Shown here one piece after another: positions 3,918 through 4,097 of a stretch of 8,054 bases of DNA (its first letter is position 1; every line of letters starts with the position of its first letter). A program made the position numbers and the translations under genes. Below the pieces are notes generated by a model that was not told the DNA's origin, did not search any database, and saw only the letters and a list, made by a program, of their open reading frames with translations. Origin of the DNA: a virus (lineage: Duplodnaviria > Heunggongvirae > Uroviricota > Caudoviricetes); IMG/VR virus record IMGVR_UViG_2778261448_000002, positions 1-8,054 of that record, one strand, 5' to 3'.

Positions 3918-3943
3918 AAATAAAAAAGGGCCACCAGCGGCCC
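3918..3943 (-). terminator. Intrinsic terminator immediately upstream of holin (tR'-like)
   Basis: Minus strand GGGCCgctggtGGCCC followed by TTTTTTATTT; the holin SD begins about 10 nt later. Confidence 0.6.
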
Positions 3944-4025
3944 GTAAAAAACAACACCCCGTCAAAGGCACCCACAGATACCTTTTGTGTGGTGTATTCA
4001 GATTTGACATACGCTGAGCAGGGCG

Positions 4026-4056
4026 AAGAAATGAAAAAGGCCCGCAGTAGCGAGCC
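4026..4056 (-). terminator. Intrinsic terminator (second of tandem array)
   Basis: Minus strand GGCTCGCtactGCGGGCC (7-bp stem with one G-U pair) followed by TTTTTCATTTCTTC. Confidence 0.45.
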
Positions 4057-4071
4057 ATGAAGAAACTGAAT

Positions 4072-4097
4072 AAAAAAAAACCGCCTGGTACGGCGGT
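4072..4097 (-). terminator. Intrinsic terminator (first of tandem array, strongest)
   Basis: Minus strand aCCGCCgtaccaGGCGGt followed by nine T residues. Confidence 0.65.

Follow-up and report, generated by a model that had tools for sequence, protein, structure and literature searches.

In phage lambda, the Q gene is followed at once by the late promoter and a terminator, and the lysis genes lead the late operon (bioRxiv 10.1101/651190), with neither tRNA genes nor a cargo slot between the terminator tR' and S. The late promoter pR' of Shiga toxin (Stx) phages is constitutively active in lysogens, where its transcripts are terminated at tR' (PMC7547250, PMC8065619), and polymerase loaded with Q ignores terminators (bioRxiv 10.1101/651190). 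The region 3' of pR' tolerates moron insertions and carries small RNA (sRNA) genes (PMC4104026). Lambdoid morons, which are extra late-region genes, are described as bounded by terminators where homology breaks off sharply (Juhala et al. 2000, as cited in PMC4104026 and PMC8065619). The GenBank record of phage 933W (NC_000924) gives the order pR' (overlapping the end of Q), qut, two terminators, the promoter pT, the tRNA genes ileZ-argN-argO, a 'terminator upstream of the stx genes', stx2AB and, further downstream, S. Here we describe the corresponding interval in an 8,054-nt stretch of viral DNA (IMG/VR record IMGVR_UViG_2778261448_000002, positions 1 to 8,054; hereafter the window), in which a predicted terminator, T0, follows a Q-like antiterminator gene, and three more, T1, T2 and T3, precede the first holin gene.

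The window and 933W have a common order: Q, a promoter overlapping the end of Q (a candidate in the window), a terminator, a tRNA cluster, a terminator, a cargo slot, and a terminator just ahead of the holin. Since the 933W record already annotates this series, the architecture is known and the array is not unusually stringent; the locus is an ordinary member of a known design of Stx-type lambdoid prophages. The explanation that we consider probable is that T0 to T3 form a series of four terminators running from the late promoter next to Q to the holin, contributed by separate, exchangeable modules, which keeps the lysis genes silent until Q acts. The window differs from 933W in its Q family, in its tRNA genes (tRNA-Thr and tRNA-Gly), in having Phage_holin_8 and Phage_holin_3_7 holins instead of a class II S, and in lacking toxin and esterase genes. 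It also has an additional terminator, T1, with a structured trailer, and its three holin-side terminators are compressed into 180 nt. From lambda it is set apart by the tRNA genes and the slot, and again by a Q of another family.

Bases 3890-4365 are 100% identical to Escherichia coli RM10740, a feral pig isolate, and about 99% identical to many porcine enterotoxigenic E. coli and edema-disease strains, and in the holin genes the identity to the Stx2e phage phiP27 is about 90%. Together these identities point to a P27-like lambdoid prophage of pig E. coli.

Predicted terminators between the Q-like gene and the holin

A consensus terminator scan of both strands of the window, evaluated against shuffled sequences, finds three terminator-like sites on the minus strand within 3918-4098, inside the 458-nt spacer that separates tRNA-Gly from holin 1; all coordinates refer to this strand unless marked (+). 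A preliminary description of the sequence had reported three stem-loop and U-tract terminators in about 180 bp, and they are present at the positions that it gave. T1 (4070..4098) consists of AACCGCCGTACCAGGCGGTT followed by nine T's and ATT, and its stem (4098-4079) has seven pairs and a 6-nt loop. T2 (4031..4056) is formed by GGCTCGCTACTGCGGGCC and TTTTTCATTT, with a stem at 4056-4039 of seven pairs (six G-C and one U.G) and a 4-nt loop. T3 (3918..3943), formed by GGGCCGCTGGTGGCCC and TTTTTTATTT, has a stem of five to six pairs at 3943-3928. The three elements are one-directional: their T-tracts, including the U-tracts of T2 (UUUUUCAUUU) and T3 (UUUUUUAUUU), occur on the minus strand only, and the U.G pair of T2 becomes a C.A mismatch on the opposite strand.

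Each element was also folded singly and compared with 200 shuffles, in line with the check on the minus strand suggested earlier, and the hairpins were supported to different degrees. T1 folds at -12.4 kcal/mol (z -4.4) and T2 at -13.8 kcal/mol (z -6.1), and in neither case was any of the 200 shuffles as good. T3, at -10.8 kcal/mol (z -1.7; 9 of 200 shuffles as good), is weak as an isolated fold, yet it is the best conserved of the three among relatives. Over the whole window, both strands included, 20 terminator-like sites were observed against 8.7 +/- 3.0 in shuffles. By chance about 0.1 sites would be expected per 181 nt of one strand, where three are observed; the Poisson estimate for three sites is about 1.5e-4, or about 0.01 when roughly 90 such windows are allowed for. 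A custom scanner gave 1.1-1.4 hits/kb elsewhere on the minus strand and in the lysis-gene coding sequences, as against three in 0.18 kb here. Because this scanner takes stem-loops of up to 30 nt and misses longer ones, its counts are lower bounds; between Q and S of lambda it calls one further hairpin with a T-tract and misses the long tR' itself.

The U-tract of T3 ends at 3918, the AGGAG motif of the holin ribosome-binding site (3915-3911) begins 2 nt further on, and the holin ATG lies at 3902, 16 nt on. The distance of about 10 nt between the last terminator and the Shine-Dalgarno sequence, as first described, is thus right for the end of the stem and not for the U-tract. No promoter-like site was found by the consensus scan of the window between T1-T3 and the holin. 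We take T1, T2 and T3 to be genuine, if predicted, intrinsic terminators in the orientation of the late genes.

Other hairpins were noted in the same region. Positions 3955-3994 hold a further conserved hairpin with the core AAAGGTATCTGTGGGTGCCTTT, which contains U.G pairs and reads GGCATC/GATGCC in relatives; it is followed after 9-12 nt by TTGTTTTTT, so that a permissive scanner calls a weak fourth terminator between T2 and T3, as it does in several relatives. Within the holin 2 coding sequence, a hairpin of about -16 kcal/mol at 3459-3488 followed by CTTTTTTT is terminator-like and may result from codon constraints. Close relatives do not conserve the motif at 4006-3986, so its likeness to DNA some 98 nt ahead of lambda S (E 4.1) was taken as chance.

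The Q-like gene (4841..5383) encodes a 180-aa protein that matches PHROG 753, 'anti-termination protein Q-like' (E 9.5e-77), DUF1133 (1e-103) and, narrowly, Pfam Phage_antitermQ (PF06530; 27.6 bits against a cut-off of 26). It is annotated as a 543-nt gene in relatives, and a 220-aa open reading frame (ORF) starting at 5503, which overlaps ybcO, is probably too long. T0 occupies 4727..4760, with a hairpin call at 4760-4735 that folds at -16.1 kcal/mol (z -4.2). A terminator after the Q-like gene had been described before and is indeed there; rather than the end of the Q transcript, it is more likely tR'. Phage vB_EcoS-666R9, whose Q is 98% identical, has in common with the window a block made up of Q and the next 116 nt only; the block stops at 4725, the last base of the T0 tail, and the sequences diverge beyond. 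As a Q protein works solely from the loading site next to its own promoter (bioRxiv 10.1101/651190) and the block co-inherited with Q ends at T0, the cognate pR' should lie in 4841-4770, and T0 is most likely the tR' of the Q cassette. T0 also matches the first terminator after pR'/qut in 933W (85.7% over 28 nt, E 6e-4).

A candidate pR' (TTGATT, 17 nt, TGcTTCAAT; 4816..4844) lies inside the non-coding stretch of this block, the only such stretch inherited together with the Q of the window. It has 8 of 12 consensus matches and the TG of an extended -10, and its -35 overlaps the Q stop codon. A -10-like TATGCT at 4806-4801, 3' of the candidate, could be a sigma-dependent pause element. Transcription from this promoter to T0 is predicted to yield an RNA of about 80 nt resembling StxS.

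Conservation, mosaic joints and the cargo slot

The spacer was compared across 99 related loci, taken from annotated E. coli and phage records, 80 IMG/VR contigs and five genome contigs with a holin 1 homologue, and the custom scanner was used to count terminators near the holin in 71 distinct upstream architectures. A holin-proximal terminator, at the position of T3, was predicted in 58 of the 71; at least two terminators lie within 450 nt of the holin ATG in 53 of them, and at least three in 30. In 933W, where the record annotates three terminators between pR' and stx, the same scanner calls seven hairpins with T-tracts in the interval from Q to S, including one some 40 nt ahead of S. These numbers do not support the preliminary description where it regarded a triple array as unusually stringent.

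Instances of each element were collected with arm patterns of our own definition, which restrict the arm variants and leave the loops unrestricted. In the related loci, 46 instances of T0 have one arm pair and 16 loop variants, and 43 instances of T1 have a single 3' arm and 19 different loops. T2 occurs with the arm pairs GGCTCGC/GCGGGCC (37), AGCTCGC/GCGAGCT (9) and others, all of which keep the pairing, and with seven loop variants; the two named pairs differ by a two-sided change that preserves pairing. The 91 instances of T3 have six loop variants and arm changes from G-C to G.U. At the position of T1, four relatives (L026, L027, L034 and L073) hold unrelated hairpins with T-tracts, for example GCCCGCCTTATGTGTGGGC-ATTTTTTT and GCCAGCCCCCAGCGCTGGC-TTTTTTTT. 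Holin homologues of Enterobacter and Leclercia, which are only 41-47% identical, are preceded by unrelated terminators, two in tandem in the case of Leclercia. Near-invariant or compensated arms, free loops and the replacement of T1 by unrelated hairpins are what selection for termination itself would be expected to produce at these sites. Many unrelated sequences precede an intact T1-T2-T3 block in relatives; the block therefore also moves as one piece with the lysis cassette.

The lysis cassette is led by holin 1 (130 aa, 3510..3902), followed by holin 2 (3520-3245) and an M15 endolysin (3248-2865), with matches to Phage_holin_8, Phage_holin_3_7 and Peptidase_M15_4 and to PHROG 198 and 217 (both 'holin'). 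Some relatives of the cassette occur in unexpected settings. In phage SerU-LTIIb (L001, KU052038), the module comprising tRNA, spacer and holin 1 is tandemly duplicated, so that a first copy of holin 1 and a holin 2 fragment come before another pair of tRNA genes and a complete lysis cassette; its LT-IIb toxin genes lie 3' of the endolysin and not in the slot ahead of the holin. An E. coli-type holin cassette with the T3 leader, at 87-97% DNA identity, is found in phage vB_Apl-pPE4 (H5/H113, PP818812), for which the host on record is Actinobacillus pleuropneumoniae, and a cassette with 85% protein identity is also present on a 2.7-kb contig of a metagenome-assembled genome binned as Bacillota (L015). 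These odd hosts may reflect mis-assignment or contamination.

Homology breakpoints, read from a ranked sample of 596 matching E. coli records, show that the spacer is a mosaic whose joints coincide with the edges of T1, T2 and T3. Homology starts at 4105/4100 (just ahead of T1), 4058/4056 (the first base of the T2 stem), 4010-4005 or 3947 (just ahead of T3), and it ends at 4075-4068 (the end of the T1 U-tract), 4031 (the end of the T2 tail), 4003 or 3922-3915 (the end of the T3 U-tract). RM10740 (L101) carries the identical spacer and holin, but the late region upstream of them differs, with a quuD-type Q, an ompC-like porin gene, an AraC-family regulator and just one tRNA-Gly. This shows that leader and lysis genes recombine as a block behind different Q cassettes.

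The joint at 4003..4006, between T2 and T3, is the site of cargo in relatives, which have 0.7-1.6 kb of inserted genes between conserved flanks at this point. In phiP27, the tRNA genes are of the Ile and Arg types and are preceded by a DNA methylase gene instead of Q. A T2-like terminator (a 24-nt match of 92%) lies just after argO, its last tRNA gene, and before stxA2e. From this site to the point matching window 4006, phiP27 has 1.6 kb containing stxA2e, stxB2e, a further terminator and the ORF L27, where the window has 27 nt; from 4006 onwards it shares with the window the leader, T3 and, at about 90% DNA identity, the two holin genes and the M15 endolysin gene. Three other relatives (L004, L010 and L013) carry TerB and DUF3927 genes at the slot, and in a fourth (L007) the match to the window stops at 4003, and TerB, DUF3927 and IraM genes and a class II holin come next. 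T2 also resembles the 'terminator upstream of the stx genes' of 933W (21385-21419; 85.7% over 35 nt, E 4e-6). In a survey of porcine Stx-producing E. coli, the two holin genes were found downstream of stx2e in 73% of strains (PMC12571312). Terminators flank the slot on both sides, T2 on one and T3 on the other, with one more after stxB2e in phiP27. We interpret T2 and T3 as the upstream and downstream edges, respectively, of a cargo (moron) slot, empty in the window. The locus resembles lambdoid morons in its terminator boundaries and sharp breakpoints and differs from them in that only the boundary terminators are left. The absence of cargo at about 4005 explains why T1 to T3 are so tightly spaced; their tandem arrangement does not reflect a purpose-built triple barrier.

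The same joints invite another explanation, in which the array has no collective function: T1, T2 and T3 would be leftover ends of modules (the tRNA unit, a former toxin or cargo gene, and the lysis cassette) that were juxtaposed by deletion or non-acquisition of cargo, and one terminator would be enough. The breakpoints at the edges of every terminator, the stx genes that follow the T2 counterparts of 933W and phiP27 and are absent from the window, and the range of 0 to 4 predicted terminators among relatives all agree with it. However, the whole T1-T2-T3 block is kept ahead of the holin behind many unrelated sequences, lost T1 hairpins have been replaced by unrelated terminators at the same position, and stems are conserved while loops drift. 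These features argue for continuing selection for termination at each site, and we consider the leftover-ends explanation unlikely, though it is the strongest of the competing accounts.

The tRNA unit and its probable structured trailer

Upstream of the spacer lie genes for tRNA-Thr(UGU) at 4514-4439 and tRNA-Gly(UCC) at 4435-4361, both called by ARAGORN and by the Rfam tRNA model (73.8 and 67.8 bits, respectively). A degraded tRNA remnant at 4520-4586, 5' of tRNA-Thr, matches argN of 933W in its 5' part (ACCGCCATCTGCTCATCGGGAAGAGC) and its 3' part (GTTCGATACCTCGGTGGCGGT), so that an argN-like tRNA is kept in the window as in 933W, though degraded. The remnant is called as a tRNA by neither ARAGORN nor Rfam; where it lies, relatives carry an intact gene for tRNA-Ile, Lys, Arg or Met. 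The cluster is preceded by a TATAAT hexamer (4654..4659), in a place equivalent to that of pT in 933W, to which it has no sequence similarity. Immediately 5' of the hexamer, where a spacer or operator would lie, there is a perfect palindrome, CACGA-A-TCGTG (CACGAATCGTG, 4676-4666), a possible regulator site for a tRNA promoter.

The tRNA genes are followed by a conserved, G.U-rich hairpin of about 33 pairs at 4157..4240, defined from an alignment of 11 distinct relatives. Across these sequences 97% of cells are paired, compared with 35-47% when the partners are slid; in the main helix, 14 of 27 pairs vary on one side with pairing kept, and four pairs change on both sides. In 5' to 3' order, the hairpin (4240-4157) is followed by a conserved single-stranded stretch, AAGCAAAACCUGGAAAU, and by T1 with its tail of 8-9 U. 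The segment 4252-4068 behaves as a self-contained homology module. As it has no good promoter of its own, it is probably the structured 3' trailer of the tRNA operon, with T1 as the likely end of the transcription unit of tRNA-Thr, tRNA-Gly and trailer. The hairpin could serve as an RNase III processing signal that parts tRNA maturation from the late mRNA. The module could also be a small regulatory RNA, or the trailer could act as an Hfq-type regulator or sponge; a long U tail such as that of T1 is typical of Hfq-binding RNAs. It is conceivable, though less likely than not, that this 185-nt module is an undescribed prophage RNA and, in addition, that T1-T2-T3 make up a portable 'lysis insulator' selected as a unit and compatible with any Q type.

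A related account would make the terminators mainly the 3' ends of sRNA genes, with T1 ending a structured RNA of about 185-290 nt (a tRNA trailer or an Hfq-type sRNA), T3 ending a short RNA from 4006-3918, and the block ahead of the holin secondary. The conserved hairpin, the single-stranded stretch and the U tail before and in T1, together with the module limits, fit this account, and there are precedents: StxS, AsxR, PasD, PasA and PasC are short RNAs that end at intrinsic terminators of the pR'/moron region (PMC7547250, PMC4104026, bioRxiv 10.64898/2026.05.13.724894). The first three are in late orientation, and PasA and PasC adjoin holin genes on the opposite strand (PMC8550237). On the other hand, none of the five has a sequence or Rfam match in the window, and the Rfam families that bioRxiv 10.64898/2026.05.13.724894 cites for AgvB, AsxR, STnc100 and Esr41 have no match there at E up to 1. 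At that threshold the whole window yields only the two tRNAs and chance matches, so that the trailer hairpin is left without an Rfam family, and a probe-derived pattern allowing up to three mismatches found no PasD-like sequence in the window. PasA and PasC, considered as models for a holin-adjacent RNA, were rejected, as both are antisense to the flanking late genes (PMC8550237, table S6), that is, transcribed in the opposite direction. Moreover, scanning and inspection revealed no convincing promoter ahead of either RNA, and the covariation comes from only 11 related sequences. We therefore rate this account slightly below that of leftover module ends.

The preliminary description noted a strong -10 upstream of the tRNAs; on a literal reading of it, the TATAAT at 4659-4654 would be the late promoter, the tRNAs a short, constitutive late transcript ending at T1-T3, and the array an unusually stringent, phage-specific Q barrier. 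The hexamer is there and is a perfect match, the tRNA genes lie between it and T1, and a Q gene lies upstream. Yet a search ahead of the hexamer found no acceptable -35, and without one the TATAAT is at best a separate, pT-like promoter of the tRNA genes and not the late promoter, in which case the tRNAs would not form part of any short late transcript. The DNA inherited together with Q stops at 4725, upstream of the TATAAT, T0 has its counterpart in the first terminator that follows pR'/qut in 933W, and arrays of 2-4 terminators are the rule in relatives, with at least as many in 933W. This scheme is very improbable.

That the region is instead protein-coding, as an N-terminal extension giving a 218-aa holin (ORF 4166-3510) or as a small hydrophobic protein, is hardly credible and was rejected. 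In its favour, no stop interrupts the frame between 4166 and the end of the holin gene, and in L006, L008 and L010 RefSeq annotates ORFs of 79-103 aa that span the counterparts of T1 and T2. Relatives do not conserve the frame, however: matching the L006 protein would take two frameshifts in the window, indels of 1, 2 and 4 nt separate relatives, and beyond T1 the sequences of L008 and L010 have diverged completely. The 'hydrophobic' stretch arises from Phe and Leu codons in T-tracts, and a good ribosome-binding site precedes ATG 3902, where RefSeq places the start. The RefSeq 'hypothetical protein' coding sequences that run through T1/T2 (1503-1763 in L006, 1503-1814 in L008 and 1689-1928 in L010, equivalent to window ~4250-3990) are, with their frames not conserved, probably annotation artefacts.

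Further genes of the window, some of them foreign or in opposite orientation, lie to either side. Upstream of the Q-like gene, and also on the minus strand, are a DUF1367 gene (6269-5670) and ybcO (YbcO, 5670-5380); an HSDR_N-like ORF is found at 6924-7685 (+) and an IS1 transposase fragment (7620-7997) at the window edge. Beyond the lysis cassette, a histidine-phosphatase family gene on the opposite strand (2200-2793 (+)), labelled LPS core heptose(II)-phosphate phosphatase in the RM10740 annotation, separates the endolysin from DUF1441 and terminase genes.

Probable silencing of the lysis genes and its place in the prophage family

With terminators in late orientation, no promoter-like site found between them and the holin and a Q gene upstream, the natural reading is that the lysis genes would be expressed by a terminator-resistant, Q-modified polymerase. 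In the scheme that we favour, a series of four terminators from separate modules, T0 would be the tR' of the Q cassette, T1 would end the tRNA unit and its structured trailer RNA, T2 would be the terminator ahead of the toxin or cargo slot, as in 933W and phiP27, and T3 would be the terminator of the lysis cassette, stopping transcripts 2 nt ahead of the holin ribosome-binding site. In the lysogen, unmodified polymerase from a constitutive pR' would halt at T0, and transcription from tRNA or cargo promoters would halt at T1, T2 or T3, so that the holin ribosome-binding site would not be reached and the lethal holin would stay silent. Upon induction, Q would load at pR' and the modified polymerase would ignore all four terminators. 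A Q-modified polymerase would be indifferent to the type of terminator, and the block could therefore be combined with different Q types, as it is in relatives.

Several points weigh against this scheme. The folding energy of T3 by itself is no better than that of shuffles (z -1.7), and at the scanner threshold the 250 nt next to the holin are free of predicted terminators in 10 of the 71 relatives. The pR' is a candidate only (8/12 matches and an extended -10), with no Q-binding element recognised, and the Q family (DUF1133) is tied weakly to an experimentally studied Q, the best PDB match being Q21 (E 0.07). The terminators coincide with recombination joints, and part of their conservation could be module inheritance and not selection acting on the complete array. 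The efficiency of each terminator, the dependence on Q and the sites where transcription starts are inferences.

The picture of lambdoid late-gene control is unchanged by this locus. The analysis places the stx2e slot of pig edema-disease phages precisely, at about 4005, which is useful for following toxin gain and loss in porcine E. coli genomes, and it flags several RefSeq 'hypothetical proteins' of relatives as probable mis-calls through terminators. For the prophage family, the likely scheme is that the lethal holin is kept silent while the tRNAs and, in relatives, stx2e or other cargo are expressed from the same DNA.

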